64,000 nucleotides of DNA from an uncultured Nitrososphaerota archaeon (lineage in GTDB: Archaea > Thermoproteota > Nitrososphaeria > Nitrososphaerales > Gagatemarchaeaceae): NCBI GenBank assembly GCA_963718895.1, contig CAVRAG010000008.1, positions 1,184,001-1,248,000 on the forward strand, written 5' to 3'. Each line of letters starts with the position of its first letter. Positions within the stretch are counted from its first letter, which is position 1. The position numbers and the translations under genes were made by a program. The notes beneath the pieces were generated by a model. That model had not been told where the DNA came from. It saw nothing but the letters and a program-made list of their open reading frames with translations, and searched no databases. This document shows, one piece after another, positions 3,440 to 40,027 of the stretch.

Positions 3440-3797
3440 ATGCCAGACAGGGGTTTCCGAACCGTCACCGTGACAGAGGGGATCTACGAGCGGGTAAAGC
3501 AGCGCGCCAAGAAGGAGCACAAGAGCGCCGCGAGCTTCGTAAGCGAGGCGCTGGAGATAATGCTCTTCGTCGAGGAGAGGTTCTCGACCTATGTCCCCTA
3601 CCTCCAGATAGTCTCTGTCGACCAGGACGAAGTGATCATAAAGGACAACAAGGTCGACAGGGTCGTCGCGAATCAAGGCAAGATCCTCCGACAACGGCAA
3701 GGTCAGGTTCTACTGCGACATTGACGATACCGACTACTGCCCACACACGGCGTTCGCCGCTGCCCTGCCACAGGTAAGGAACGCAATCAGAAGGTGA
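3440..3797 (+). CDS. Small DNA-binding (RHH-like) protein with C-terminal SWIM-like Zn finger; apparent frameshift near 3680-3700
   Basis: N-term FRTVTVTEGIYERVK; an alternate frame continues FYCDIDDTDYCPHTAFAAALPQVRNAIRR* to 3797. Confidence 0.55.
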
Positions 3798-6961: not shown

Positions 6962-8254
6962 TCACGAGGGAAGCTTGAGGATCGCCTTGTCGTTCGAGAG
7001 CGAGGCCACGTACTCCCAGCCCTGCTGGATGTACCGCTCCACCTCCCCTATCTGGATGACCTTCTGCTTGGACCCGTTGTTCGCCATCGCCCCGAGCAGC
7101 TTCTCCCTCACCATCCTCTGGAACTCCTGGTCGGTCACGGACGAGAGGTCCATGGCGTCGATCTCGCCCTCGCCAAACCCGGCAACCAATAGGAGCTGCC
7201 TCCTCGTGGACTCCTTCAGGTCCTCCTGCGTCACCTCCGAGGAGCGCTTGAACGAGAGGCGGTTGTACTCCGCCCGCATCTCCTCGACCTTCGTCTTGTC
7301 GAAGTAGGTGTCCTGGGACGCGGGGAGGATGTGCCCCATGAGGAACTCCTGCACCTTCCCGTCCATCCGCCCGTGGTCCACGTACTCGGCCCTCAGCACG
7401 GACTGGAACGCCTTCCGCAGGCAGTGCGGGTGCACGGAGGCCCACTGCTCGATGCCCGCCTTCCGGGCCGCGTCCTTGACCATCCTCTCGAGCGTCCTCA
7501 GGTTGACGTGTGTGACCTCGCCCTCCACCCTCTCCCCGAGGAAGAGGGGGGTCCCGTCCTCGAACCTGCCGACCTTCCTCTCGGTCTCCGCGATGTAGGT
7601 CCTCAGTATCCTCGTGGCATAGGGGTGGATGAACGTGTAGTAGGAGACGGACCCCTTGCAGGCGTCCGCGACCACCTTCTTCATCTCCGGATACACTGGC
7701 ACGAGGAGGGTCTCCTGGCCCGCCGCGAGCTCCTTCTTCACGTCCCTGTACAGCAGGGCCCGCAGCGTCGAGTTCCTCAGCCCGCTCGTGTACAGGCAGG
7801 CGACGATCGCCCTGTTCTTCGGGCTCCCCGTGTTCTCGACCATCTGCCACGCCTCCTCGTTAGTGGGGATGTACTCGCTCGTCTTGCGGTAGCGCGCGGG
7901 CTGGTGGTACCTTTCGACCTCGACCTCCCTGCCCTTCCTGTACCCGTTCTCCCTCAGGAAGGTGGAGAGGAAGGCCTGCGTGACGTTGATGTACCGTATG
8001 CTGAGGTCCTTCGACTTCATCCCGTCGAGGAAGGCCTGGACGTCGGACTGCGCAACCTTCGGGGTGCTCTTCACGTAGGCGTCGGGGTCGGGGGCTCCCA
8101 CCGAACGGAGGAACGAGTCGACGATCTCCAGGAACGTCTTCTTCGTGTGCTCGCTGGAGGTGCGTCTGCTGTAGTGCTTCAGTGCCCTGTCTATCGAGGG
8201 GTATTCGCTGGACCATCCCTTGACCTTCAACCTTAATTCGTAGCCCTTGACCAT
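6962..8254 (-). CDS. Tyrosine recombinase/integrase of the left element
   Basis: SGLRNSTL (R), HPHCLRKAF (HxxR), LMGH, DTYFD (Y); ATG at 8254 next to the tRNA 5' end. Confidence 0.92.
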   Translation of the reverse strand: MVKGYELRLKVKGWSSEYPSIDRALKHYSRRTSSEHTKKTFLEIVDSFLRSVGAPDPDAYVKSTPKVAQSDVQAFLDGMKSKDLSIRYINVTQAFLSTFLRENGYRKGREVEVERYHQPARYRKTSEYIPTNEEAWQMVENTGSPKNRAIVACLYTSGLRNSTLRALLYRDVKKELAAGQETLLVPVYPEMKKVVADACKGSVSYYTFIHPYATRILRTYIAETERKVGRFEDGTPLFLGERVEGEVTHVNLRTLERMVKDAARKAGIEQWASVHPHCLRKAFQSVLRAEYVDHGRMDGKVQEFLMGHILPASQDTYFDKTKVEEMRAEYNRLSFKRSSEVTQEDLKESTRRQLLLVAGFGEGEIDAMDLSSVTDQEFQRMVREKLLGAMANNGSKQKVIQIGEVERYIQQGWEYVASLSNDKAILKLPS

Positions 8255-8302
8255 GGCCGGCCGGTGGATGGAAAGCCGGGCTAGATAAAGTATTGCGACA
8301 TA

Positions 8303-8446
8303 GGGGGCGTAGCCTAGCCAGGTATGGCGACAGGCTCCAGTGGTCAAACTACTATAGGTTTGATGACACGTTCGCGTGGATGATTACCCAATTGGAGCGG
8401 CGAAGAAACCTGTAGGCCGCCGGTTCAAGTCCGGCCGCCCCCACCA
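8303..8446 (+). tRNA. tRNA-Trp(CCA) with long 37/38 intron containing box C/D-like motifs
   Basis: Acceptor GGGGGCG/CGCCCCC-ACCA; anticodon arm ACAGG-CT-CCA...CCTGT; T arm GCCGG-TTCAAGT-CCGGC; intron has TGATGA, GGATGA and TTGGAGC complementary to the anticodon region, as known for archaeal tRNA-Trp introns. Confidence 0.92.
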
Positions 8447-8495
8447 CTTTTGATAGGTATAGGGGAGCTTATTACCACCATTTGCTTAGTCTTCC

Positions 8496-9684
8496 ATGAA
8501 CTGGGAAGCTAGGGACGAGTTCGTCGAGAAGATGTTCAGGAGGTCTGGCTCGGTCTACTCCAGGCGGTACTACGGCTTCGGCGTCGACAACTTCCGGAAG
8601 TTCTGCGAGGGGGCGGGCATCGGGGAAGTCGACGGGAAGAACGTCTACTCCGTGATGGACGCCTACGTCGGCTACCTGCACGGCACGAAGGGCCTCAAGG
8701 CGAAGACCATCCACGACTACATCACCGCCGTGAGGAAGTTCCTCGGCTACGTCGACGTGGAGGTGGACCCGCTCAAGTTCAGGAACAAGGTGGTGATGCC
8801 CAAGGTCACGCAGATAGCGGACGTGCCGCTCAGGCTCGAGGACGTCCAGACCCTGCTCACGAGGGGGAGGCCCAGCCCCAAGCTCAGGGCCCTGATCCTG
8901 GTGCTGCTCTCCTCCGGGATGAGGATCGGCGAGGCGCTCAGCGTGAGGTGGGTGGACCTCGACCTGAGCTCGACCCCGGGGACGATCGGGCTGAGGGCGG
9001 AGTACACCAAGACCAGGGCGGCCCGCACCGCGTACGTGAGCGAGGAGGCGAAGCAGGCGCTGCTCGAGCTGAAGGCGAGCTCCCCGCCCACCGAGAGGGT
9101 ACGTGGACTACTCGGGGGACATGTGGCAGAAGCAGAAGGAGGCGGGCAGGACGTTCAGGCGCCTGGTGGGCAGGGTGGGGCTGGGGGAGAGGCTGGAGGG
9201 CCACAGGACGCACAGGATACACTTCCACAGCTTCAGGAAGTTCTTCCTCACCAGGGCCGTGGACACCCTCGGGGACCACGCCGGGCACGCCCTCTGCGGG
9301 CACGGGTTCTACATGGACACCTACTACAGGAAGAGCGAGGAGGAGAGGAAGGCGGAGTACCTCAGGCTCATGCCGCGGCTGACGGTCTTCTCGAAGGAAG
9401 CCGTGAGCACGGACCAGATGCTCGCCACCTTCAACAGGCAGTTCCTGAAGATCTCGAGGTACACGGACAAGGAGATAGAGGCGCTCGGGGACCTCTCACA
9501 GCTCTCGAACGAGCAGCTGCAGGACCTGATCGCGAGGAAGCAGCTGGAGAAGCTCGGGCTGAGCAACGGGAGCCGCCAGAAGGTGATCAGGCTGGACGAG
9601 TTGGAGAGGTACATCGGCGATGGCTGGGAGTTCGTCACGAACCTGAACGGCGACAAGGCGATAGTCAGGCTGCCGCCGCATTAA
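8496..9684 (+). CDS. Tyrosine recombinase/integrase of the right element; frameshift near 9100 (sequencing error or pseudogene)
   Basis: SSGMRIGEAL and TKT in the first frame; HFHSFRKFF, LCGH and MDTYY in the second frame (9103-9684). Confidence 0.88.
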
Positions 9685-9846
9685 GGACGTAGTGCGCTGG
9701 ACGTAGCCTAGCTAGGTTATGCTATGCCCTTTTTATCGCCATAGCGTATGAAACAGGGACCTTTGACCAATGGAGCAGCCTACCCTGCGTAGGCTGTCCG
9801 TGATGTCTTCCTCTACGAAGTATCTTCAATTGGCCCATATCTGAGG

Positions 9847-16310: not shown

Positions 16311-17192
16311 TTAACTCGAGTTCTGCGCCTGAACCCAGAAGAAGAACGTTCCATATTGATTGATGTTGATAGTCACCAAGTAGTAGGTCCCGGCCGAGAC
16401 TCCCGTCGTCACGGTTGATAGGTTGGTGGCAAGAGTGATGGTTGTGGTCGGACCACTCGCGATTACGTTTGGGCAAGACGTGCTTGTGCAGCCCCACGTG
16501 GCGGACGCCAGACTTTTCGGTTCTTCAATGCCATATTGATTCGTCAAATTATTCAGGTTGGCGGTAACGCCGTAGGTTGGATAGTTGTCGGAGCTGACAG
16601 AGATGATCATAGTCGCGCTTAGATTCCCTGAAATCGTAAGACTCGAAGAGGTTACAGCCGTAAGTGCTATCATGGGTGGAACCGTCGAAGTGTAGAATTG
16701 TTCCGTGTGGCTGAACCTGCCTGAAGCAACCGCAGCAACTGGGACGTTGATCGAATTCCCGGCTGGGAGCGTGATCTGTACTTCAAAATAGTATGTTTGT
16801 CCTGTGATTGGTAACCCCCATCCAGGGACGAAGTTGGGCGAGAAGCCTGCCTGGGGAAGAGTGAGATTCACTTCGTATGCGCTTCCTGCAGGGAGAACGA
16901 ACGTCGACGACTCTGCACCCAGAGAGGCGCAATCAGTGTAGTCAGGAGCGCACTCTTCCAGAGGAAGTATCGACTGAGTGGAGGTCTTGCCGTTGTTTGC
17001 GATATCGGCAACCAGATGACCTCCAGGCTCGATGAAGGCCGAGTTCACATGGAAATCGGACGAGGAGGGTCCACCAGGGCCCCCTATGCCAGCGCCCAAC
17101 TGTCCGGTTTCGTAGAAGTAAGCTGCCACTCCCACTACCAGAACGAGGACTACCACCACTAGACCCGCAATGACTCTCAACTCCGAAGGCAC
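16311..17192 (-). CDS. Membrane-anchored secreted protein
   Basis: N-terminal TM followed by Ser/Thr-rich beta-type sequence. Confidence 0.7.
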   Translation of the reverse strand: MPSELRVIAGLVVVVLVLVVGVAAYFYETGQLGAGIGGPGGPSSSDFHVNSAFIEPGGHLVADIANNGKTSTQSILPLEECAPDYTDCASLGAESSTFVLPAGSAYEVNLTLPQAGFSPNFVPGWGLPITGQTYYFEVQITLPAGNSINVPVAAVASGRFSHTEQFYTSTVPPMIALTAVTSSSLTISGNLSATMIISVSSDNYPTYGVTANLNNLTNQYGIEEPKSLASATWGCTSTSCPNVIASGPTTTITLATNLSTVTTGVSAGTYYLVTININQYGTFFFWVQAQNSS

Positions 17193-17390
17193 CTCGGTCG
17201 CAAACTCTGCTGCCTCACCAAGTGCGACAGCGGGTACGCCTGATAAGCTTGAGGGCTCACGATGTGTTGCTGGTCGGTGTTACGGGTCTCAAAAGGATGA
17301 GTTGTGTAAAATGTAGTGCAAAAAAGAGAGACGGAGGCTATTGAATAATAGCCGCATTGTGCAGATTTTGTATGTCATTCGGGGATTTGG

Positions 17391-17576
17391 TCAAGGATTC
17401 GCATGGGAACCGGCTCGTCGTTTTTTGGTGCGCGGGTAGAGTTCTTTGAAGAGGTACTCCTCGGCGTCCCCGTCCACATGACCCTTCAGCTTGCCCTGCA
17501 TCAGTTCTCTGAACTTCGCGACCCTAGCTTCGAGCTCTGCCCTGGACGGCCTCTTCTCCTCCCGTTTGGGTTCCAT
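17391..17576 (-). CDS. Small hypothetical protein
   Basis: 61-aa ORF co-oriented downstream of the ArdC-like gene. Confidence 0.45.
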   Translation of the reverse strand: MEPKREEKRPSRAELEARVAKFRELMQGKLKGHVDGDAEEYLFKELYPRTKKRRAGSHANP

Positions 17577-17609
17577 GCTTCTATAGACTCTCCGATGGGG
17601 TTTTGTCCT

Positions 17610-18481
17610 GATAAGGGTTGTCGGGGTGGTCGGGGTATATCAGCTCCAGGACCTTCTTGGTGCGGTCCAGGACGCGCATGCACATCCTGCCGACCTGCTG
17701 AGGGTTGTTCGAGTTGGCGTAGCTGGAGATGTAGCGACCAGCTGAAGCCGTCTGCGGGCCTGCCGTAGAGTCTCGCCAGCGTCGCTGCCACCAGCTGCGC
17801 TATGGTCTCCGCTTCTGGCTCCTGCCCGTGGCCGCTCTTGGGCTCGAATGTCCTGTGGAGGGCGTGCCCCAGTTCGTGGAAGAAGGTGTCCCAGTCCTCT
17901 GTCGCGAGGACGATTGTCTTGTTGGTGTGGTCGGTGGCGCCGTAGATGCCCGGGGCTAGTCGCTCGTACTGGACCTTCATGCCGAACTTCTCTGCGACCT
18001 CCATGAGCGGGGGCGGGTCTCTGGGCTCGTAGATGGGGAGGTCCTTGCCGGAGGTGTCCTCGAAGCGGAAGACGGGGATGGCTTTGAATCCCACGAGGAC
18101 TTCTGCGAACCCTTCCTCCTCTGGCCCTCCGTGTCGTCTGGTGGCCTTCCTCTTGACCTTCTTCCTGACGGGCCCCAGGATGAAGAAGGCTTTGCTCCCC
18201 TTGGAGACGGAGCGGCCGACTTCGTTCCACTGCCTGAAGCCCCTGGCGTCCGTCGTTCCTGCCAGGAGCATCAGCAGTTGGTTTCCGAAGGACCACCTTG
18301 AGGAAGGCTTGACAGGGCTGTTGATGATGGCCTTCGCGCACATGTCGGGGAGCTGCTTCGACGAGAAGAGCTGGACTATCTTCTCCAGCTCCGAGTTCGC
18401 ACGCTCCCTCCAGGAGGCTTGGGACGTTGCTGGCTGACTCGTTGGTTCGGTGGCTTGCGGTGCCGTCTGGTTTGCTGACAC
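17610..18481 (-). CDS. ArdC-like ssDNA-binding/antirestriction protein with HExxH metallopeptidase domain; apparent frameshift near 17730, 3' end approximate
   Basis: WSFGNQLL, ARGFRQWNEVGRSVSKGSKAFFIL, PVFRFEDTSG, FHELGH, EAE. Confidence 0.8.
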
Positions 18482-18589
18482 GATAGAGTCCGCCTGCCTA
18501 CTCTTCCGTGCCGTCGGCTGGGAATCGCTTCATGAATTTGTCCTTGATCCTGTATGTATAGTTCCCGAGGACTATTTCGTCGCCACCCT

Positions 18590-19000
18590 TCATCTTCTCG
18601 ATGACGTCGCTATGCTCGCCAGCTCGGGGAGAAGGTTCTCGTCCCTGTCCATGTAGAAGGTCCACTCGCCCCCTCCGTTGGCGTACTTCTTCCAGGGGCG
18701 CTTCTCCAGTATTGCTGGATTAATGGCTGGTGGAGTTGCGTGGTTGCTGGTTGAGTTGTTCTGTGCAGGTGCGGCATGGCTCTCGCCATTGGACCTGTGC
18801 CTTCCTAGGACGTAGACGATGTTGCTGAACTGCCTCTCGGGGGTGTTCGTGTAGCTCTCGAGCACCTTGATCAAGGTGAAGCCCTCCTTGAGAAGGCCGT
18901 TCGCCTCCTCAGGAGTACCGGCTTCCTTGATCTCGGTTATCTGGGAGTACGGTGTCTCCATTCTTCTTCGCCTCCGCCTCGCTCGGGGCCTCTCAGACAT
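18590..19000 (-). CDS. Hypothetical protein, possibly frameshifted at the 3' end
   Basis: Co-oriented ORF; EANGLLKEGFTLIKV. Confidence 0.5.
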   Translation of the reverse strand: MSERPRARRRRRRMETPYSQITEIKEAGTPEEANGLLKEGFTLIKVLESYTNTPERQFSNIVYVLGRHRSNGESHAAPAQNNSTSNHATPPAINPAILEKRPWKKYANGGGEWTFYMDRDENLLPELASIATSSRR

Positions 19001-19023
19001 GCCCTCCTAGGGCCGGCCCGCAT

Positions 19024-22000
19024 TTAACGGGCGAACTGCCTAGCCTCCTCGTTCAGCCTCCGGCAGCAGTACTCCCTCACGGTGTATTCTCTGATGCCGA
19101 GAGTCTCGGCAGCCTCCCGCTGAGAGACGGTCTTGGGCGAGATTGCCAGGGACGCCAGATAGACCGATCCTGCTGCGACGGTCCTGGGGTTGAAGCCGTT
19201 GGGCTCCGCTGCTGAGGCTACGAGCTCCTTCGCGCGCTCGAAGAGGGTCGTGAAGTACTCCTTCGGGTCTGCTTCTGACTTCCTCAGCCGCTCGGCAATC
19301 CTCTCGCTGGATTGCAGCCTGCCGATGGCGGCCTTCACGAAGTCATCCTTGCTGGGATGGGGGAGGTGCATCCCGGACTCGAGGCCTAACTTCAGCAGGT
19401 CGGACTTGCGGACCCTGTAGCCCGCGTCGGTGTAGGCCTTCAGGACCTCCCTGTGGCTGACGTGCACGACACCTGCTGCCCTGCAGGCGTAGAGCTGAGG
19501 TAAGAGTGCGCTGCCACGCCCTTCAAATCGGGCAGGAAACACGCACCCTCCCTCCCAAACCCGGCGTGATACTTTCGCATCACCGGGCTTTCACTCCTAC
19601 GTCTTCCGTCCTCTTCTTGTGCATTAGATGGATTGATTTCAGCTACCTTTCTTGAGGCAGCTTACTGTGGCATTTCGCGCACAATGTCTGAAGATTTTCG
19701 ACTCGGTGCACGACCTGCGGGTCGAAGACCATTCCTCTGGGGACACGTTCTATGTGGTGCGCCTGTAGTTTCTCCCGACTGCTGCACTGGGTACACTTCC
19801 ATCCATCCCTCTCAAACGTCAGAAGGCGGTTGGAGAGATAGGTTTCATCATTGTACTCGGGCGCAACCGGGTGGGCGTTGGGCGCATCTATGATTGGGTC
19901 GTCGGTTTTCTCTGAAATGCTGGTTGCCGTGTGGCTCTGGTTGGTGTACGGATTCCTGATTGACCTGTATTTCCAGATGAGTTTATGGTTCATGGAGGTG
20001 TGCATGCTCGTATTGGAGGTCATCCTGAAGAGTTCAACCTTGATGTCGCCCCTCTGAATGACCACCCTTCCGTTCGTGCACACGGTTGACAGGTACTTCC
20101 CGACACTGATGTGGTACTTCCTTCGGTACCACTGCCGAAACAAGCGTTCGGCGAGGAAGTCTCCTGTCCTGAATTGTTGGTAGGCATTTACTGCTTTGTA
20201 GTAGTTGGCCCATCCCTTCAAGACCCTGTTCATCGCCGCAACCTTCGTCGGGGGGTCATCGCTTATCGCAGCTGTCCCTAACATCGCTTGCAGCTTGTTC
20301 TTGAGACGGGAAAGATTTCGCTGTGTTGGTCGTATTCTGACACAACTGTAGTATCCCATGTTCACCCGCCGGATGTGGAAACCGAGGAAGTCGAATCCAT
20401 TCTCCAGCGGAATGAGTCTTGTCTTCTCTGTTGACAGGTTCAGATTGAGTCTCTCCTTAAAGAAGCTCCGTATGCTGTTCATGACTGCGGTGGCTCCCGC
20501 TTGGGTGCCTTTCACACTCAAGATGAAGTCATCCGCATACCTGAACAGTACACAACTGGCCTGTTCCGTTTTCTGTTGTTGTACTCTCTGCGTCCTTGTG
20601 AGCTTGCCCCAGTATTCATCCCAGAACTGGTCAAACTCGTTGAGGTAGATGTTGGCTAGCAATGGCGAAAGGACACCACCTTGCGGGGTTCCTTTCCGGA
20701 CTTGTACCTGAATGCCATCTTCGATGACGGGTGCCTTAAGGAACTGACGAATCAGCCACAGGATGCTAGTGTCTGCTATCCTTTTCTTGACAGCTCGCAT
20801 TAGTATCTCATGGTCGATGTTGTCAAAGCACCCTTCGATGTCTCCTTCTATGACCCATTCGTATCTTCGGACGTTGTCCCCGTACCGATACATCGGCAAT
20901 ACACACTCCAACGTGCTTCTCTCAGGTCGGAAGCCATTCGAGTTTGGCAGGAAGTCGGCCTCGAAGATTGGTTCAAGAACCATCTTCAAGACCATCTGCA
21001 CGACCCGATCTCTTATCGTTGGGATGCCTATTGGGCGCCTCCCTCCGTTAGCCTTCGGAATGTACTTCCTAAGCACCGGAGAGGGGTGATATGTTCGCTG
21101 TTTCAGCTCTGTACGCAGTTCTTCGACAAATCTGGCCCTAGCAGACGGCTCGTGCAGGTCTGCCCCGCACACTCCGTCCACACCTGAGGTCTTCGCGCCA
21201 GCGTTGTCTAGAACCGCTTCGAGAGCCGAGTTGAGCCACTCTCTTTTCCAGAGTAGCGAATGGAGGTTGTAGAATTGCTTGCTTGGTCGTAGTGTTGCGA
21301 TTCTTGCGAGTCCACTCTGGATGCAGAGAATGGCTCTGCCTTCCCTCTTGCGGGGGACTACCGATGATTGCTCATCGGTTTTGTTGTTTGAGCCCATTCT
21401 CTCACCTCCTTTTGTGTTTCGTGGACTGAATCCATCCTTTGCACAGTTCGGACTTCGGATTTCGGACTAGAGTCCTTCCCCACAGGTCGGTAATTGGCCG
21501 ACATTCAGGGTACTATGACTCCTCGGAGCCAACCCAGTCAAATCAGACGCAGCCGTCCTATCCACTCGCCCTTTATCGACGAGAGGCAGACCGGGTTGGG
21601 TCTCACGTTCTGTAAGGAGCACGTCTGTAGACGGATTTAGGCACCCACCAGTATTCGGGAAGATTCCGCCACGCCGGGCGGTTCTCGCCTTCCTAAAGGA
21701 AGGGGATTTGCCATTCCTCTCACTGCACAGGAATGGTAACCCTCCATGTCGTGCGCCCTTCTATCCTAGTGTCTTCGCACGACCGGCCTACTATCTGTTG
21801 TGGGTTCCTTATCGTTGCCATGTCCGTCCTTAGGTCGCCGTCTCGGGAACCTAGGCTGTTCCCTTATCGGCTGTCTATGTCTGGGGCTAGCCCCATGCTG
21901 GGCTCTGCTCAGAGCCCAACATGCCAGACGACTTTCACCTTCGGGAGTCCAAACCTTACGGCTGTGGACGCCCAGCCCTACCTACTGTAGTGTGGGATGA

Positions 22001-25000
22001 TAATTCCGGAACGCTTTCAATTCGTAGTGGTAGCGATGGTTGTGGTGTGTGGCTTCCACTTGTTTGATGCAAAGGCTATTGTGACTGCAGACACAAGGAC
22101 TGCAATTCCTATGTAATTCAGTGTGTAGTTGGCTGGAGCTGTATCCTTGGTTCGAGGCAGGATTGTACTGTGTGGCTGTTACTGATGGATTGATGGCACC
22201 AAAGATGAGAAGTATGGCTCCTATGATGCCTAGTATGAGTGCCAGTCCCAAGATAGTCTGTTTGGTCATCTTGTCGTACCTGCACCTATGGGACTGTTCA
22301 TGTCTTAAGTACTTTTGTCCGAACGGAAATGTTCATAGTGGTCGGTGGTTGACCCTACAGTCCTTCGGGCATTGCTCCTTACAGCGGGCCTCGGTTACTT
22401 TTCAGTAACAGGGGCTTTCGTGACGCGCCAGCGAGTAGGCCGATATCGAGGGGATCGTGGCCTCGTAGGACTCCCTTTGGGGGAGGAGCCTCCTCGCCGT
22501 GATGTCGGCAGCCTGCGCGATGCTCTTGGGGAGGGACAGCCTCTCGGCTATCCTGTTCGTCAGCATCGAGCACGTCGGCATCGGTCCGCCTCGCCCGACG
22601 ATGTTCGGCATCAGCTTCGCCCACCCGAAGGCGGGGCCCTTCAGAGAGGAGGCGCTCTCCGTGTCCGCGACTATGTACGAGCCAAGGGGCTCGCTCTTGC
22701 TCACGGATGGCGCCGTCGACCCGTCCTCGCGCGTGTAGTCCGCCCTGCTCACGACGATCCCGCAGAAGGAGCACGTGAGCTCCGTTCGTTCCTCTCCCGC
22801 GTAGACCTGAGGTAAGAGTGCGCCGCCATGCTCAAAATATCGAGCAGGAAGCACGCACCCTCCCTCCCAAACCCGGCGTGATACTTTCGCATCACCGGGC
22901 TTTCACCCCTACGTCCTCCGTCCTCTTCTTGTGCATTGGATGGATGATTCCGATTCTCCCAGACTTGTCGCTTCTTCGGTATGGGTCGCGAATATTGTTC
23001 TTACTCCGCAAGGTTCTTATGTTACGGATGAGGTTGTTCCGAGTTGAAATGAAGTGGATTCAGCTGGCTCCGGTAGTTGGCTTCGTTTTGACGCTTGCTT
23101 CCTTGTTGTATGTGTGGAATCCCTATACTTGGGGTGTTACAGAGTTAAGCTACGGTTATCCTTTGCCGTGGCTTACCAGCTTTGCCTCTGTAGCGGGTAC
23201 ACATTGGGCAATGAATGTTGTGGGTCTTGCCGTCGACTTCTTGGTCTGGCTTGCTATATCTGCTGCAGGAATTTTCTTGTTGTCCTTGCGCAGTGCAAGA
23301 GAATTGTTGTTCCAGAGGTCAGCTTGGTCTAGGCTGTTTTAGATGGCATTTTGCGCATAGGGTCTGTAAGTTCGCAATCCTGTGCACAACTTCCGGGTCG
23401 AATATTCCTTTGGGCACTGGTTCGACATGATGCGCCTGAAGTTGCTCCCGACTGCCGCACCGAGTACACCTCCATCCATCCCTCTCAAACGCTAGTAGGC
23501 GGTTGGAGGAATAGATTTCACCGTCGTACGCAGGTGCAAGCGGTTGGATGTTGGGCGCATCTATGATTGGGTCGTCGTTTTCCTCTGGAATGCCGGTTGC
23601 CTTATGATCCTGGCTGATGTATGGATTCCTGATTGACCTGTATCGCCAGAGGAGCTCATGATTCCTTATGGTGTGCGTGCTCGTGCTGGATGCCATCCGG
23701 AAAAGTTCGGCTTTTACACCCCGCCTCTGGACGACCACTTTGCCATTACTGAGGACTTGCGCTAGGAACTTCCGGACGCTTACCTTGTACTTGCGACAGT
23801 ACCACTTGCAGAACAGGCGTTCGGCCAGAAAGTCCCCGGTTCTGAATTGCTGGTACGAATTGACTGACGTGTAGTAGTTGGCCCATCCCCTCAAGACTCT
23901 GTTCAGGGCTGCAATTTTCATGTGCGGCTCGTCGCGCGACGCGGTGGGCCCGAGCATGGATTGCAATTTGTTCCTGAGGCGGTATAGGTTCCTCTGTGTA
24001 GGTCGTATTCTGACGCACTCGCCGTAGTCTAGGTGCACCCGCTGGATGTGGAATCCAAGAAAATTGAATCCCTCTTCCAGACGGACGACCCTGGTCTTGT
24101 CTGTGGATAGGTCCAGCCTGAGCTTGCTCTTGAAGAAGCTCCTGATGCTGTCCATGACGGCGTTGACCCCCTCTTCAGTGCCTCTCGCACTTAGGATGAA
24201 GTCATCAGCGTACCTGAACAGCACACAGTTGGCCTGTCCGTGTCTCTGGCGTTTCTTTCTTTGATCTGCTGTGAGTCTGCCCCAGTTTTCATACCAGAAC
24301 TGGTCAAACTTGTTGAGGTAGATGTTGGCGAGCAGTGGTGAAAGAACACCTCCTTGTGGTGTTCCCTTGCGGGTTTTTGTCCGGATGCCTTCGTCGATGA
24401 CGGGTGCCTTGAGGAACCGACGAATCAGCCACAGGATACTGTTGTCGGCTATCCTCTTCTGGACAGCTTCCATCAGGATTCCGTGGTCGATGTTGTCGAA
24501 GCACCCTTCGATGTCTCCCTCGATGACCCATTGGTAGAGGTTGTGGCTGTTCCCGTAGCGGTACATTGGCAATACGCACTCCAGCGTGCTTCGCTCAGGT
24601 CTGAAGCCGTTGGAATTGGGCAGGAAGTCGGCCTCGAAGATTGGTTCGAGAACCATCTTCAAGACCATCTGCACCACCCTATCCCTTATCGTTGGAATGC
24701 CTATTGGCCGCTCCTTCCCGTTGGCTTTTGGAATATACTTCCTGAGCACTGGGGAGGGATGGTAGGTTCGTTGCTTCAGCTCCGTCCGCAGTTCCTCGAC
24801 GAATCTGGCCCTAGCAGACGGTTCGTGCAGGTCAGCCCCGCACACTCCGTCCACGCCTGAGGTCTTCGCGCCAGCGTTGTCTAAGACTGCTTCAAGAGCT
24901 GTTTGTAGCCACTCTCTTCTCCAGAGTAGTGAGTGTAGGTTGTGGAATTGCTTGTCTTTCCTTCTTGTTGCTGATATGGCGAGTCCACTCTGGATATGGA

Positions 25001-25865
25001 GAATGACTCTGCCTTCGTCCTTGCGGACTACTGGACTCAGCGATTGCTCACCGAGCTTATTGTTTAAGTCCATTCTCTCACCTCCTTTTTTGTGTTTCGT
25101 GGACTGAATCCATCCTTTGCACAGTTCGGACTTCGGATTTCGGGCTAGAGTCCTTCCCCGCAGGTCGGTAATTAGCCGACGTTCAGGGTACTATGACTCC
25201 TCGGAGCCAACCCGGTCAAATCGGACGCAGCTGTCCTATCCACTCGCCCTTTATCGACGAGAGGCAGACCGAATTGGGTCTCACGTTCTGCAGGGAGCAC
25301 ATCTACAGACAGGTTTAGGCACCCACCAGTGACCGAGAGAGCCCCGGCACGTCGGCTGGTTCTCGCCTTCCTGCGGAAGGGGATTTGCCACACTATGGTC
25401 TCGTAAAGTGTGGTGGTTCTCTATACCATGCGCGCCTCGTCCTATCCTAGCGTCTTCGCATGGCGCAGGGACATTCTGTTGTGGGTTCCTTATCGTTGCC
25501 TTGCCTGTCCTCAGGTCGCCGCCTCGAATGCCTAGGCTGCACTCTTTGCGGCTGTCTATGTCTGGGGCTAGCCCCATGCCGGACTCTGCTCAGAGTCCAA
25601 CACGCCAGACGACTTTCACCTTCGGGAGTCCTGACCTCACGGTCGAGGACGCCCAGCCCTACCAGCTGCTTTCGCAGCCCTTCGGGCATTGCTCCTTACA
25701 GCGGGGAAGTGGCTTATTCAGCTACTTCCTTTCGTGACGCGCGAGGCCTTCCCTGCACTCCGGGCACCTGCCCAGGATGCTGTACTCCTCGTACGCGGCC
25801 AGCTCTCGTCCGTCCACTCTTCTGAATTCCTTGAACCCCTTGCATGTTTTTCGGTCTCCTGCCAT
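19024..25865 (-). CDS. TFB/TFIIB-like transcription factor split into three exons: 25865-25743, 22806-22429, 19494-19024 (~323 aa spliced; start codon tentative)
   Basis: Joined exons give the Zn ribbon CPEC-REGL|VYAGEERTELT-CSFC, cyclin repeat 1 (IAERLSLPKSI...ISAYSL|LYACR) and repeat 2 (NPRTVAAGSVYLA...VSQREAAETLGIREYTVR); all exon lengths are multiples of 3. Confidence 0.85.
19643..21397 (-). CDS. ltrA: Group II intron-encoded RT/maturase with C-terminal HNH endonuclease
   Basis: GVDG, RPIGIPTIRDRVVQ, GFRP, GDIEGCFDNI, GTPQGGVLSPLLANIYL, RYADD, GWANYY, CxxC..HH..N..CxxCH; SD GGAGGTG. Confidence 0.95.
   Translation of the reverse strand: MGSNNKTDEQSSVVPRKREGRAILCIQSGLARIATLRPSKQFYNLHSLLWKREWLNSALEAVLDNAGAKTSGVDGVCGADLHEPSARARFVEELRTELKQRTYHPSPVLRKYIPKANGGRRPIGIPTIRDRVVQMVLKMVLEPIFEADFLPNSNGFRPERSTLECVLPMYRYGDNVRRYEWVIEGDIEGCFDNIDHEILMRAVKKRIADTSILWLIRQFLKAPVIEDGIQVQVRKGTPQGGVLSPLLANIYLNEFDQFWDEYWGKLTRTQRVQQQKTEQASCVLFRYADDFILSVKGTQAGATAVMNSIRSFFKERLNLNLSTEKTRLIPLENGFDFLGFHIRRVNMGYYSCVRIRPTQRNLSRLKNKLQAMLGTAAISDDPPTKVAAMNRVLKGWANYYKAVNAYQQFRTGDFLAERLFRQWYRRKYHISVGKYLSTVCTNGRVVIQRGDIKVELFRMTSNTSMHTSMNHKLIWKYRSIRNPYTNQSHTATSISEKTDDPIIDAPNAHPVAPEYNDETYLSNRLLTFERDGWKCTQCSSREKLQAHHIERVPRGMVFDPQVVHRVENLQTLCAKCHSKLPQER
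21982..22269 (-). CDS. Small membrane protein carried inside domain I of intron A (probably frameshifted near 22120)
   Basis: N-terminal TM ILGLALILGIIGAILLIFGAI; second TM (YIGIAVLVSAVTIAF) in an alternate frame; absent from intron B. Confidence 0.55.
   Translation of the reverse strand: MTKQTILGLALILGIIGAILLIFGAINPSVTATQYNPASNQGYSSSQLHTELHRNCSPCVCSHNSLCIKQVEATHHNHRYHYELKAFRNYHPTLQ
23049..23342 (+). CDS. Small two-TM membrane protein carried antisense inside domain IV of intron B
   Basis: 97-aa ORF: TM - YGYPLPWL - TM; region absent from intron A. Confidence 0.65.
   Translation: MKWIQLAPVVGFVLTLASLLYVWNPYTWGVTELSYGYPLPWLTSFASVAGTHWAMNVVGLAVDFLVWLAISAAGIFLLSLRSARELLFQRSAWSRLF
23319..25073 (-). 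CDS. ltrA: Group II intron-encoded RT/maturase with HNH endonuclease (sister of 19643-21397)
   Basis: Same RT motifs, YADD, domain X and HNH; same 584-aa length. Confidence 0.95.
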   Translation of the reverse strand: MDLNNKLGEQSLSPVVRKDEGRVILHIQSGLAISATRRKDKQFHNLHSLLWRREWLQTALEAVLDNAGAKTSGVDGVCGADLHEPSARARFVEELRTELKQRTYHPSPVLRKYIPKANGKERPIGIPTIRDRVVQMVLKMVLEPIFEADFLPNSNGFRPERSTLECVLPMYRYGNSHNLYQWVIEGDIEGCFDNIDHGILMEAVQKRIADNSILWLIRRFLKAPVIDEGIRTKTRKGTPQGGVLSPLLANIYLNKFDQFWYENWGRLTADQRKKRQRHGQANCVLFRYADDFILSARGTEEGVNAVMDSIRSFFKSKLRLDLSTDKTRVVRLEEGFNFLGFHIQRVHLDYGECVRIRPTQRNLYRLRNKLQSMLGPTASRDEPHMKIAALNRVLRGWANYYTSVNSYQQFRTGDFLAERLFCKWYCRKYKVSVRKFLAQVLSNGKVVVQRRGVKAELFRMASSTSTHTIRNHELLWRYRSIRNPYISQDHKATGIPEENDDPIIDAPNIQPLAPAYDGEIYSSNRLLAFERDGWRCTRCGSREQLQAHHVEPVPKGIFDPEVVHRIANLQTLCAKCHLKQPRPS

Positions 25866-26461
25866 GCTTCGTCCTGGCACGCTCCGGTGGTTCAACCGGC
25901 GTAGGCGCTGCCAGCTTCTCGTTCTCGAATCCTTCAGGAAGGGATGGCGGACAGCAGAGGCTTCACTTGGTCCCCGTCCGGGATCGCATGGGCGGATAAT
26001 AATGGGCCCAATGTGATCTGTCTAGCCGGTCCTCAAGTCGCAGCTTCGTTTCTGCCCAGTGGTTGGGTAGAAACTATTGGATATGGCTGCGGCCCGGACC
26101 GGTCAAGGAACGGGGGTGAAGCTTCCGCTTCCGTCACTCTCCTGAAGGCCGATGGAGGAGAAGTTCTTTCGCGTCCTTCTGGGTGGACTTATGGCATCGA
26201 GTGTGCCCAGAGGACGGCCGTTGGGCCCGGATACTTCCGTCCGGGTGGAGAACGGTCAACCAAAGACTGCGCTCATCTTCATGTCGAAAAGTCGGATGAG
26301 CCGTCACCGGGTATCCCGTTCTCTCCCGCAGACGATTGGCCGACGAAGGCGTTCAGTAGCCTACGCTGGTGCCAAGGTCACAGGTTCATACCGAAATCAG
26401 AGAGAGAAAGACGAAATACGGCAGCAAAGGCTCGTTCAGTATTTAACACGGGCACGGGGAT

Positions 26462-26556
26462 GTTGCCAACCGACAGTCCGAATCACCAGTTTGGCAACGT
26501 AATTGGCAACATCGGAGACCAATTTGGCAACATCGTTGGCAACATGACTTGGCAAC
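26462..26556. repeat. Iteron-like cluster: five direct TTGGCAAC (26491, 26503, 26524, 26536, 26549) plus one inverted copy (26462)
   Basis: Read directly; lies in the divergent intergenic region. Confidence 0.75.
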
Positions 26557-26574
26557 ATCATTCTCACGTTAAGA

Positions 26575-28206
26575 ATGACCTCGCCGATAGATGGCATGAA
26601 CCCCGGGGCGCCCATCTTCCTCTACATTCCGTTTCCTTACTGGGGTGTCTTCGTCTTGGTGCTGTACAGGCACGACCTGTCGAGGCTGTCTCATCCCTTC
26701 AGGGACGACGGGAGCCCGATCAAGTGGTGGTCGGTCTTGAACCACATGGGTCTGCTCGCCACTGCTAAGGCAGCGAGGCCGCGGAGCATCAGGGGAGTCC
26801 TACCCTACGTCGCCCTGTTCGCCGTCTCGGCGGTGGTGAGCCTGAGCTGGACCTTTCGGCTTTTCCCTCCATTCTATTACTACCTGATCATCGTCCAGGG
26901 CATCTCCGCCATCGTCCTCGACCGCGGCGACCTTGCGGTACCTCGGCCCGCCTCCCAGGAGGCCTACGTCGACGTTCTCAGATACCCGCGGCTCGGGTCG
27001 AGGATAAGGCACCTCGGGAAGGTCCCACAGGACAGGCGAGAGAATCGAGCCCTCCAGAGAGCCTCAGGAGATTCAGAAATGACCTCAAATCAGGCTCAGA
27101 AGAAGGAGAGCGCCAAGAAACGGGTCCGGTTCTTCAATGTCTCCCTCAGGAACGGCATCGTGGTCTCCACCCCGGCATACCCGGAGAAGCAGGCCTTCCT
27201 CGGCCATGTCATCAGGGCGCTTGAGAGTTCCAACCCCGACTTCGCCTGGATCCAGTTCCTCTTCGTCAGGTCAGACTACAGCTCAGCGCTGGTCAGGCTG
27301 AAGAACTCCATGCACAGGGCCAAGGTATCCATCGAGCAGCCGACAATCGACATGGTCAGCGGTGAGGAGCGGGACAGGAGGGAGCTGCACCGGGACTACT
27401 ACAGGCAGTCGGACGCCAGGATGAAGAAGATCGATGACATCGCGACCAAGCCGACAGTTACTCTTGCGATTCAGGGGATGTGGGTCTGCGATAAGGGAGC
27501 AAGTTCGCCCAACTCTCTTCCCTTCGACCACTGTTCGGACGAGCACGACAGCCTGGCGGTCTTCCAGTACCGCGACCCGAGGATGCTCCTTGAGCTGGTC
27601 GACAGGAGGATGGTCGTGGACATCTCGGAGTACTTCGACCGCTACACAAAGTCGAGGATGGAGCCGCCCTCCTTCCTCGTTACTCCGGAGGAGCTGGTGT
27701 CGTACATCCATCTGCCTGCCGGTGAGGTGGCCAAGTCTCTCAGCTCCCTGCAGGATGAGGAATCCAAGCGGGAGTTCTCTCAGGGAAAGGTCGAGGAGGA
27801 TGAGGAGACCAAAGAGAGTCAGAGCAGCGATATCTCCTCAAAACTGGTCAGGCTCGTGAAGGTGCCCACCACTGACGAGGTCTTGGAGGATTCAGCGATT
27901 CAGCCTCTCTCCCACCTCGCAGCCCCGACGGTGAGGACGCTCGAACTCGTATACTCCGGTGGGAAGACCGAGGTGTTGCTCTCCGCCGAGACGGTCGAGG
28001 ACATGAGGAAGTACACAGGGCTACTCAGCCTTGTCTATGGTGGCCTGAAGTTCGAGAGGGCCGAGCCCCAGCCCGCATTCATGATAGAGCTGCCCGTAGT
28101 CATAGGCCTCCTCTCGGCAGACCTAGAAAAGGAGCGGCCCGCAGCCAACACCGAAACTCCGGTCATAGGAATAGACCCCGATCCATTGTCCGGGCCCAGC
28201 TCCTAG
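26575..28206 (+). CDS. Membrane-associated hypothetical protein, possibly transfer-related
   Basis: 543 aa with N-terminal TM segments followed by a soluble domain; function only guessed from context. Confidence 0.55.
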   Translation: MTSPIDGMNPGAPIFLYIPFPYWGVFVLVLYRHDLSRLSHPFRDDGSPIKWWSVLNHMGLLATAKAARPRSIRGVLPYVALFAVSAVVSLSWTFRLFPPFYYYLIIVQGISAIVLDRGDLAVPRPASQEAYVDVLRYPRLGSRIRHLGKVPQDRRENRALQRASGDSEMTSNQAQKKESAKKRVRFFNVSLRNGIVVSTPAYPEKQAFLGHVIRALESSNPDFAWIQFLFVRSDYSSALVRLKNSMHRAKVSIEQPTIDMVSGEERDRRELHRDYYRQSDARMKKIDDIATKPTVTLAIQGMWVCDKGASSPNSLPFDHCSDEHDSLAVFQYRDPRMLLELVDRRMVVDISEYFDRYTKSRMEPPSFLVTPEELVSYIHLPAGEVAKSLSSLQDEESKREFSQGKVEEDEETKESQSSDISSKLVRLVKVPTTDEVLEDSAIQPLSHLAAPTVRTLELVYSGGKTEVLLSAETVEDMRKYTGLLSLVYGGLKFERAEPQPAFMIELPVVIGLLSADLEKERPAANTETPVIGIDPDPLSGPSS

Positions 28207-28371
28207 GAGATAACAGTCCAGCGACTGCGTAAAGTGGATCTGGAAGTTGGCGCAGGGGATGCTCGAGCCGCACATGGGATCGACGTACGAACTGCTGACA
28301 CTCACCACAGGAACTGCGAAGACGAATGCTAGTGCCAGGACGACGACAAGGAGAATCACCTTTCGACTCAA
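28123..28371 (-). CDS. Small Cys-containing secreted/membrane peptide
   Basis: TM followed by PVV..C..C..SL pattern shared with 32196, 34595 and 36917 genes; shared motif upstream at 28424-28444. Confidence 0.55.
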   Translation of the reverse strand: MSRKVILLVVVLALAFVFAVPVVSVSSSYVDPMCGSSIPCANFQIHFTQSLDCYLLGAGPGQWIGVYSYDRSFGVGCGPLLF

Positions 28372-28451
28372 CCTCGGCGTGGTAATCTCATCCCTGCGTC
28401 GAACGCTTGTTGGGTTGATTCTTGATTAATACCTTTGTCCGAACGGCGCCA

Positions 28452-39729: not shown

Positions 39730-39923
39730 TCCGCGCTTTCCCCGCTGGTCGGACAGCAGTGGATACAAGCTAAGTTCGTCGCCCGACCCGCCCGCGGGCA
39801 TCTGCGAATCCGCGACAGAGGAATCCTTATCACTCGGCGCGTTGAAATCCGACGCGGAGGTCAAGCAAGTGAGATACTCACCGAAATCTCCTCCTCTATC
39901 CCCACCTAAAATGGTAGGTAAAT

Positions 39924-39942
39924 GTCCGGCCGCCCCCACCAC
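39924..39942 (+). repeat. attR-like copy of the tRNA-Trp 3' end
   Basis: 19/19 identity to 8429-8447. Confidence 0.9.
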
Positions 39943-40027
39943 CTTTGACTTGCAGAGCGGCCGCTGAAGCCCCTCACGATTATAGACTTAATGCTGGCGA
40001 GATTGGCGCCATTCGCGGGCCCACATC

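Follow-up and report, generated by a model that had tools for sequence, protein, structure and literature searches.

Can a mobile element of an archaeon carry a transcription-factor gene that becomes readable only after two introns have been removed from its RNA? The question is raised by a locus on the minus strand (25865-19024) of a 64,000-nucleotide stretch of genome from an uncultured Nitrososphaerota archaeon of the Gagatemarchaeaceae (assembly GCA_963718895.1, contig CAVRAG010000008.1, positions 1,184,001 to 1,248,000), hereafter the window, to which bare positions refer. We put it at roughly three chances in four that a divergent TFB/TFIIB paralog is encoded here by a genuine gene of three exons, that this gene stands first in a module of a tRNA-integrated element of Nitrososphaerales type, and that it has been split by two mobile introns, here called A and B.

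The open frame of the gene becomes visible once the exons are joined, which was done by script: with both junctions in phase 0, exons of 123, 378 and 471 nt form 324 codons, opened by an ATG at 25865-25863 and closed by a TAA at 19026-19024 that is the sole stop, and the product has 323 aa. A first-pass annotation of the same DNA, made from the letters alone, had proposed three stop-free fragments joining in phase 0 into a protein of about this length, and the proposal stands with exact coordinates (Table 1), the 969 coding nt holding neither a stop nor a frameshift. A search of the genome itself revealed a paralog without interruption, located some 38 kb upstream (L007, ORF 981-2141 minus), and the joined product aligns with it over 316 residues without a gap across either junction; the open frame is therefore not due to chance. 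DNA and protein alignments to this paralog place the exon/intron junctions to the single base, and no displacement of a boundary is compatible with both introns. Placing the 5' boundary at GUCAC, with ...A-Q-V-Y... as the outcome, was ruled out because the paralog reads ...GL/VY... and ...SL/LF... with no added residues. The same termini are seen in a metagenome copy of the intron (L013) that interrupts an unrelated gene, the frame of which is restored on its removal, so the boundaries are independent of any single comparison. Within the protein, intron A falls between the two Cys pairs of the zinc ribbon, and intron B in the first cyclin repeat (...SISAYSL/LYACR...).

The two interruptions are, on their sequence features, genuine group II introns lying in sense orientation. 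Near its 3' end each has a match to RF00029, the Rfam model of domains 5 and 6 (D5/D6), well over the gathering score of 40 (Table 1), and the scores are alike in 5/5 copies that retain the 3' part (A, B, L012, L013 and L015). Folding of A, B and L013 gave a D5 helix of 14 bp interrupted by a bulge of 2 nt, and a D6 in which a single A, 6 nt from the 3' end, is bulged out. This is in keeping with the usual D5, a helix of about 34 nt that has an AGC triad, a 2-nt bulge and a GNRA loop, and with the usual D6, which has a bulged branch adenosine. Each intron also encodes a reverse transcriptase (RT)/maturase above the 300-bit cut-off of TIGR04416, the NCBIfam equivalog for group II RT/maturases; the YADD and HNH motifs are intact in both open reading frames (ORFs), and the two proteins are 75% identical (436/583, BLASTP). 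Both introns start with GCGCGTCACGAAAG and finish with CTCTTACCTCAG. The termini GCGCG...CAG were found at 4/4 5' ends (A, B, L012, L013) and at 4/5 3' ends, L012 ending in TAG, and they recur at three unrelated insertion sites. Comparison of the RT protein with those of solved structures gave E values of 1.7e-56 for T.el4h, 3.2e-54 for LtrA and 1.7e-50 for GsI-IIC; no intron class could be assigned on this basis, the IIA, IIB and IIC proteins being equally distant. With two sense-orientation introns in the gene, a full-length protein from this copy requires two splicing events, and the first-pass claim to that effect is upheld by RF00029, TIGR04416, the D5/D6 folds and the exact boundaries.

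Pairing between each intron and its own exons offers a further line of evidence. When five copies are aligned, domain I is conserved except at two hypervariable spots, which hold the exon-binding sequences EBS1 and EBS2 of introns A and B (Table 1). EBS1 lies in a terminal loop in 3/3 copies folded; in L013 it makes 7 pairs with its own 5' exon, and no convincing EBS2 was found for that copy. The pairing run of EBS2 in intron A is 9 when G-U pairs are allowed. When each sequence was set against the other sites, the pairing runs reached at most 3 for EBS1 and 5 for EBS2; exon-binding loop and 5' exon covary. In 3/3 copies the base 5' of EBS1 pairs with position +1 of the 3' exon, which in intron B is a G with the +1 C of exon 3. 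Such complementarity to the own site is what RNA-guided insertion and splicing would require. A class-C-like model, which takes the variable hairpin after GCGCGUCACGAAAG as exon (a terminator-like target), was rejected because the hairpin varies with the lineage of the intron instead of the place of insertion: it is alike in B and L013, which sit at different sites, and A and L012 have another version.

Table 1. Features of the split gene, its two introns and the surrounding element (window positions).
Feature	Position	Strand	Remarks
Exon 1	25743..25865	-	41 codons from ATG 25865; N-terminal tail and first CxxC knuckle of the Zn ribbon
Intron A	22807..25742	-	2936 nt; boundaries by gap-free alignment to the intron-less paralog
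Exon 2	22429..22806	-	126 codons; second Zn knuckle, linker, start of cyclin repeat 1
Intron B	19495..22428	-	2934 nt; same termini as intron A; inside cyclin repeat 1
Exon 3	19024..19494	-	156 codons + TAA; rest of cyclin repeat 1, cyclin repeat 2, C-terminal helix-turn-helix (HTH) region
Intron A domains 5 + 6	22807..22904	-	RF00029 57.0 bits
Intron B domains 5 + 6	19495..19592	-	RF00029 57.3 bits (match 19494-19592)
Intron A encoded protein	23319..25073	-	584 aa; RT (YADD), maturase, HNH; RVT_1 2.8e-39, GIIM 1.1e-09, HNH 2e-07; TIGR04416 351.6 bits
Intron B encoded protein	19643..21397	-	584 aa; RT, maturase, HNH (Pfam RVT_1, GIIM, HNH); TIGR04416 350.7 bits
Intron A EBS1 (GAGACC)	25397..25402	-	Hairpin loop; 5/6 pairs with the 3' end of exon 1
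Intron A EBS2 (TCCCTGC)	25465..25471	-	Complementary to exon 1 -14 to -8
Intron B EBS1 (CAGTGAG)	21719..21725	-	7/7 pairs with the 3' end of exon 2
Intron B EBS2 (AGTAGGCCG)	21784..21792	-	Complementary to exon 2 -14 to -6; pairing run 11
Intron A insertion	22956..23318	-	About 363 nt between RT stop and D5; not in intron B
Intron B insertion	21995..22357	-	About 363 nt in the domain I hairpin tip
Small 136-aa gene	18590..19000	-	Directly downstream of the TFB-like gene
ArdC-like gene	17501..18481	-	HExxH motif; PF08401 (ArdcN) E 2.1e-4, 21.9 bits, below the cut-off of 22.6
tRNA gene	8303..8443	+	141 nt, hence intron-containing; RF00005 53.4 bits; integration target
Tyrosine integrase of the split-gene element	8496..9692	+	Pfam Phage_integrase 1.5e-07, 31.8 bits, cut-off 27.1
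Attachment (att) repeat arm 1 = tRNA 3' end	8422-8453	+	Repeat family D15
att repeat arm 2, distal copy of the tRNA 3' end	39917..39948	+	32 nt, 88%; far border

The protein encoded by the joined exons is, to judge from profile and model comparisons, a divergent TFB paralog and not a housekeeping TFB. Pfam matches to single exons were weak only; against the uninterrupted paralog, the TFIIB profile PF00382 reached 26.3 bits in two stretches (cut-off 23.6), and a match to Zn_Ribbon_TF had an E value of 9.6e-4. A profile built from 36 family sequences matched yeast TFIIB and Brf1 as well as human TFIIB (2.1e-18) and Pyrococcus TFB (4.4e-11); the cysteines C34, C37, C53 and C56 are invariant in 36/36 aligned members. 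The AlphaFold 2 model has a mean predicted local distance difference test score (pLDDT) of 74.7, exceeding 90 in the cyclin core and falling below 50 in the linker (residues 64-107), where L82, G83 and S84 are the sole invariant or near-invariant positions; three beta strands at 40-62 correspond to the zinc ribbon. With this model as query, Foldseek returned TFIIB, TFB or Brf at all listed ranks from 1 to 41, with a TM-score of the core of up to 0.68, and the two cyclin repeats and the C-terminal HTH region align to TFIIB. The assignment of the product to the TFB/TFIIB family in the first-pass annotation is thus confirmed, and the zinc ribbon and cyclin repeats that it had named fared unequally against the profiles: the cyclin-repeat profile was passed, and the zinc-ribbon profile PF08271 stayed at 19.1 bits against a cut-off of 29. 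The protein has in common with canonical archaeal TFB (Pyrococcus, PDB 1AIS/1D3U) a zinc ribbon, a linker, two cyclin folds and a C-terminal HTH, and these two structures were matched by the profile at 4.4e-11 and 5.7e-11 and by Foldseek at ranks 17 and 21; it differs in its poorly modelled linker with few invariant positions and in a score for cellular TFB (NCBIfam PRK00423) of 36.4 bits, far below the cut-off of 384. The protein may act as a basal factor for promoters of the element. The TFB complement of this genome is unusually large, with 10 canonical loci over the Pfam cut-off and two weaker ones, and a distant third relative of the element TFB (31% identity) lies at C7:276514-277386. 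Among 14 fetched metagenome gene calls of the family, P0121, P0123, P0127, P0131 and P0144 enter the same alternative frame in sequence equivalent to exon 2; these could be frameshifted alleles, sequencing errors or programmed events.

The comparison with the intron-less paralog also bears on selection. The ratio of nonsynonymous to synonymous substitution rates (dN/dS) between the two genes is 0.21 overall (exon 1, 0.47; exon 2, 0.14; exon 3, 0.16), which indicates purifying selection along the history of the pair and says nothing on selection since the insertions. Neutral decay, for which the first-pass annotation had named this ratio as a check, is not the pattern seen over that history. 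Exon 2 (22429-22806) is 97.4% identical in nucleotides to C8:1166547-1166923 of the paralog, with a synonymous divergence (dS) of 0.08, in comparison with 85.8% for exon 1, 89.1% for exon 3 (dS 0.35) and about 79% for the flanks. Exon 2 therefore looks like a recent gene-conversion patch delimited by the two intron sites. The RT proteins of introns A and B likewise contain a near-identical block of about 110 aa, comparable to the exon 2 patch. On a larger scale, window positions 17648-28444 and C8:1164680-1169659 match as a block at about 79%.

On the preferred reading, two related, distinct mobile group II introns would have reverse-spliced into the gene in sense orientation, between codons, and transcription of the module would run across some 5.9 kb of intron sequence. 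Helped by its own RT/maturase, each intron RNA would fold, would pair with the flanking exons through EBS1, EBS2 and the base adjacent to EBS1, and would be excised by branching at the D6 adenosine. The 323-aa protein would arise only from the doubly spliced mRNA; on unspliced RNA, ribosomes would be expected to halt 6 codons into the intron after exon 1, or 8 codons into it after exon 2. The introns themselves are most simply regarded as selfish passengers of the element family, that is, as a case of parasitism by a host-lineage-specific intron family.

The sequencing libraries bear on this reading in both directions, and several features of the locus weigh against it. Part of the stretch occurs in 20 runs from 17 studies (labelled as soil, peat or permafrost metagenomes), among which the three RNA runs (X18-X20) and the best DNA run (X1) were compared in detail; the three RNA rows and four 'same sample' rows (share 0.00) were not used as habitat evidence. 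In RNA run X20, a 268-nt contig of depth 28.4 joins 22805/6 to 25742/3 and so skips exactly the 2936 nt of intron A. This contig differs from the window at 13/259 positions and has one paralog variant in common among the differences listed; being unlike both the window and the paralog, it comes from a third allele. Intron-less DNA alleles exist, and RNA libraries can carry DNA. The joined contig is consistent with splicing, or equally with an intron-less allele or library DNA, and in the runs compared no read or contig was assignable to a spliced transcript of the window allele. A second X20 contig (25531-25767, depth 19.2) crosses the unspliced junction of exon 1 and intron A. At a likeness of at least 90%, no contig of X18-X20 covers exon 3 or the 3' junction of intron B, which is evidence neither way. 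The exon 2/intron B junction is crossed independently by an X1 contig (22257-22526). In X19, the match of a contig at 22430-22630 stops at the exon 2 border with 41 further letters that were not placed, and nothing is drawn from it; joints linking the two intron copies (20395>24321 and 21468>25125) were read as artefacts of repeats or relatives. Taken as a whole, the evidence leads us to expect that intron A is probably spliced in vivo, to lean slightly towards the same for intron B, and to hold the odds even that both are.

The points that weigh against the reading within the locus itself are as follows. Group II introns usually begin with GUGYG and end with AY, a consensus from which the GCGCG...AG termini depart, and none of the Rfam group-II-D1D4 families has a match at E <= 1 over 17000-28000. 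EBS1 of intron A has an internal A.C mismatch with its own exon, and the insertion in intron B replaces a GNRA-type loop that the 4 remaining copies have. The paralog has a perfect and empty site 1, with 16 bases ahead of the junction and 11 behind it identical, which argues against presently efficient homing by intron A. Since the paralog is intron-less and lies in a second element at the same tRNA, the TFB-like function of the cell need not rely on splicing. Finally, family homologs start with MQGVQG..., and the corresponding ATG of the window (25845) is off frame by one extra base near 25801-25805. In the DNA run X1, every contig over 25801/25805 is one base shorter (3.7 + 2.5 of 6.2 depth), and the N-terminus of the paralog has a separate 1-nt difference, which creates another ATG; evidently either the N-terminal tail tolerates insertions and deletions or the window contains a one-base error. 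The in-frame candidates for the start are ATG 25865 and a GTG giving MDGRELAAYEEY, as in homolog P0039. The start given in the first-pass annotation is accordingly only partly secured: ATG 25865 is in frame, and the true start is uncertain.

These observations give substance to the idea of a dead copy, in which efficient splicing has been lost in intron B at least, if not in both introns, the gene is silenced and decaying, and the paralog supplies the function. The paralog at the same tRNA and its uninvaded homing site, the frameshifted MQGVQG start, the altered domain I tip of intron B and the EBS1 mismatch of intron A would all fit such a state, as would the frequency of frameshifted family alleles in metagenome gene calls (5 of 14 fetched). 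We nevertheless consider it unlikely, since a decaying gene would hardly keep 969 coding nt free of stops and frameshifts, a dN/dS of 0.14-0.16 in exons 2 and 3, two intact 584-aa intron ORFs with their catalytic motifs, D5/D6 scores on a par with those of the other copies, and both an ATG and a GTG start in frame. The non-canonical termini are a conserved variant of the lineage and do not look like decay.

A second alternative concedes that the gene is spliced and makes splicing a regulatory gate: splicing of one or both introns, with an efficiency tuned by temperature, host state or induction of the element, would set the level of the element TFB and hence the expression of the element. The split gene does come first in its module, and there is the precedent, and only that, of Ll.LtrB in the lactococcal relaxase gene, where splicing efficiency is reported to control conjugation and the intron to restrain expression of its host gene (PMC1874635, PMC7293003 and PMC6003770). 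The sequence holds nothing that would separate a gate from plain parasitism, however, and 7/7 full-length relatives examined in titled or reference genomes (L093-L096, L104-L106; L107 is cut at the contig start) are intron-less. Related introns at varying sites and in another gene also make a pattern of opportunistic insertion. A gate of this kind strikes us as improbable. Doubtful to much the same degree is a more elaborate scheme, in which a Nitrososphaerales-specific intron lineage, marked by its non-canonical termini, its insertions solely between codons and its cargo genes, would reside specifically in the TFB-like/ArdC-like module of a family of tRNA-integrating elements, the doubly spliced gene would be expressed, the element TFB would drive a 19-nt motif (described below), and splicing would serve as a checkpoint for the whole element. 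That mis-joined repeats placed the introns in a metagenome-assembled genome (MAG) is very improbable even for an assembly that is 80.5% complete and 5.41% contaminated and even though a metagenome contig with this intron (L012) has mismatched flanks, because contigs X1 22257-22526 and X20 25531-25767 cross the junctions independently, L012 has the same site-1 junction, and the EBS1 and EBS2 of each intron match its own flanking exon, which a chimera would not yield.

The three-exon gene so preferred carries introns of a lineage that, as far as sequence relationships tell, is found in Nitrososphaerales MAGs and in peat and soil metagenomes. The genome contains just two group II RT genes, both within the split TFB-like gene. 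In a class-level sample of 400 other genomes, a match to the RT reached E <= 1e-30 in 2 (35-47% identity). The protein database contains at least 90 RT clusters with 50% identity or more, and the few that bear an organism name are mostly from Nitrososphaerales or Nitrososphaerota MAGs, with one from a Cyanobacteria MAG. Four close metagenome loci of the intron were compared (L012-L015), L014 being cut at both ends. In L012, from another metagenome, the site-1 junction is identical and the RT is 94% identical to that of intron A; L012:2984-4269 has a TFB-like exon 1 on the 5' side and a 3' flank unrelated to exon 2, an arrangement that could stem from recombination between intron copies or from a metagenome assembly chimera. 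L013 and L015 split an ArdC-like gene at two different sites, and the out-of-frame tail of P0121, known as protein only, appears to be an intron 5' end inserted 12 nt downstream of site 2. All 5/5 distinct insertion sites (window sites 1 and 2, P0121, L013 and L015) lie between codons, for which the chance is (1/3)^5, about 0.004, given equal phases and independent sites. At the two window sites, the first 8 bases of the 3' exon agree in 7. A lone 60-nt fragment (L004, C4:246132-246191) is 88% identical to the start of domain I and lies about 550 nt from the copy of the 19-nt motif at C4:246744. A pattern search of viral contigs gave 129 matches, none of which is a relative.

Each of the two introns in the window has an insertion of about 363 nt, in a different place (Table 1). 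The one in intron A is reflected in the spacing of the A and B copies, 3673-3681 upstream of the insertion and 3312 for D5/D6, and it carries an opposite-strand ORF of membrane-like character (within 22818-23342 +). The one in intron B contains a small ORF with two transmembrane segments (22269-21982), which has a relative at C8:626184-626447. A 238-aa ORF of secreted or membrane-like character also lies between the RT gene and D5 in another copy (L015:1773-2489). To our knowledge, natural cargo is unusual in group II introns.

The surroundings of the gene agree with the first-pass claim that it belongs to a mobile element. An integrase adjoins a tRNA gene, the 3' end of which is repeated 31.5 kb away (Table 1), so the split gene lies in an integrated element of about 31.5 kb; host-type genes (GNAT, MPG, Amt, RNR) follow from about 40.3 kb on. 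The 5' part of the tRNA has an exact 25-nt repeat at C8:1131970-1131994, and directly beside the tRNA lies another integrase (6962-8347 minus). From these we infer a second element of about 60 kb on the other side of the tRNA, containing the intron-less paralog, and two integrated elements appear to flank one tRNA gene, each with an integrase and a TFB-like/ArdC-like module. The order TFB-like, 136-aa and ArdC-like gene is found in 6/8 related loci (L093-L096, L104-L107), L093 matching in the TFB-like gene alone; several of these loci are titled as Nitrososphaerales or Candidatus Gagatemarchaeum MAGs, and a 543-aa gene lies divergently upstream of the module where the related locus reaches that far. 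The ArdC-like gene of the window has an apparent frame change near its 3' end relative to L106 and L107. A Pfam scan of 28 window ORFs outside the split gene showed no VirB4/VirD4-type ATPases or conjugation genes, the scan leaving aside many small ORFs at 28-38 kb.

A 19-nt motif, TTAATAGTT(T/A)TGTCCGAAC, has 51 copies in the genome at <= 3 mismatches and 0 in each of three shuffles of C8. Seven sites are in the window (5464, 22306, 28426, 32127, 34873, 35342 and 39443) and 44 elsewhere in the genome; the copies form islands (C4 246-386 kb, C10 22-38 kb, C8 1158-1224 kb and C8 1488-1536 kb) and are nearly always located between ORFs. The motif may serve the elements as a promoter or operator of their own. 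The insertion of intron B contains one copy, and a role as promoter of the small ORF there was not upheld, orientation and spacing being inconsistent among copies.

How far this arrangement departs from known systems can be judged from three comparisons. Ll.LtrB in ltrB of Lactococcus lactis is likewise a mobile intron that encodes an RT-maturase-endonuclease and lies in sense orientation within a gene of a mobile element, the protein of which depends on splicing. Here too, the nucleotide adjoining EBS1 forms a pair with position +1 of the 3' exon, a IIA-like arrangement. The present case differs in its archaeal host, in having two introns in one gene, in its transcription-factor target, in its GCGCG...AG termini and in the additional DNA of domain I or domain IV (insertions of about 363 nt, or cargo ORFs), and its RT is no closer to LtrA. 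The second comparison concerns thaumarchaeal integrative and conjugative elements (ICEs), all of which, among those identified, encode TFIIB homologues (Krupovic et al. 2019, PMC6563490); element-encoded TFB paralogs and integration at tRNA genes are common to both. In the ICEs the TFIIB gene usually precedes a ParB-like gene, according to the text of that paper, whereas here it is followed by the small gene and the ArdC-like gene. The passages searched there do not mention introns in ICE TFIIB genes, using the word only for tRNA genes, and its supplements may differ. As to archaeal group II introns, their presence in the TACK group and in all archaeal supergroups has already been published (PMC8632793; 10.1101/2024.12.10.627823). 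In the literature searched we found no description of group II introns in Nitrososphaerales genes or of a two-intron archaeal protein gene, cases of which may be listed in the supplements of PMC6563490 and PMC8632793. With the introns of Methanosarcina and other archaea the present ones have in common that they carry RT ORFs and reside in an archaeal genome. The Methanosarcina introns home into the ORFs of other introns and into non-coding sites, whereas here two introns cut one cellular-type protein gene into three exons.

The principle is not new, as Ll.LtrB is already an intron in a mobile-element gene that needs splicing and thaumarchaeal element TFBs have been published. Spliceosomal introns are presumed to descend from group II introns, and one argument for the rarity of the latter in prokaryotic genes is that coupled transcription-translation leaves no time for splicing. 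A gene of a TACK archaeon that lies in three in-phase exons, separated by two intact group II introns, provides a natural test case for this argument. The locus is also a record of an intron lineage whose termini and cargo are unusual, and it adds a layer to the biology of archaeal mobile elements, that of retroelements nested in the element's own transcription-factor gene.

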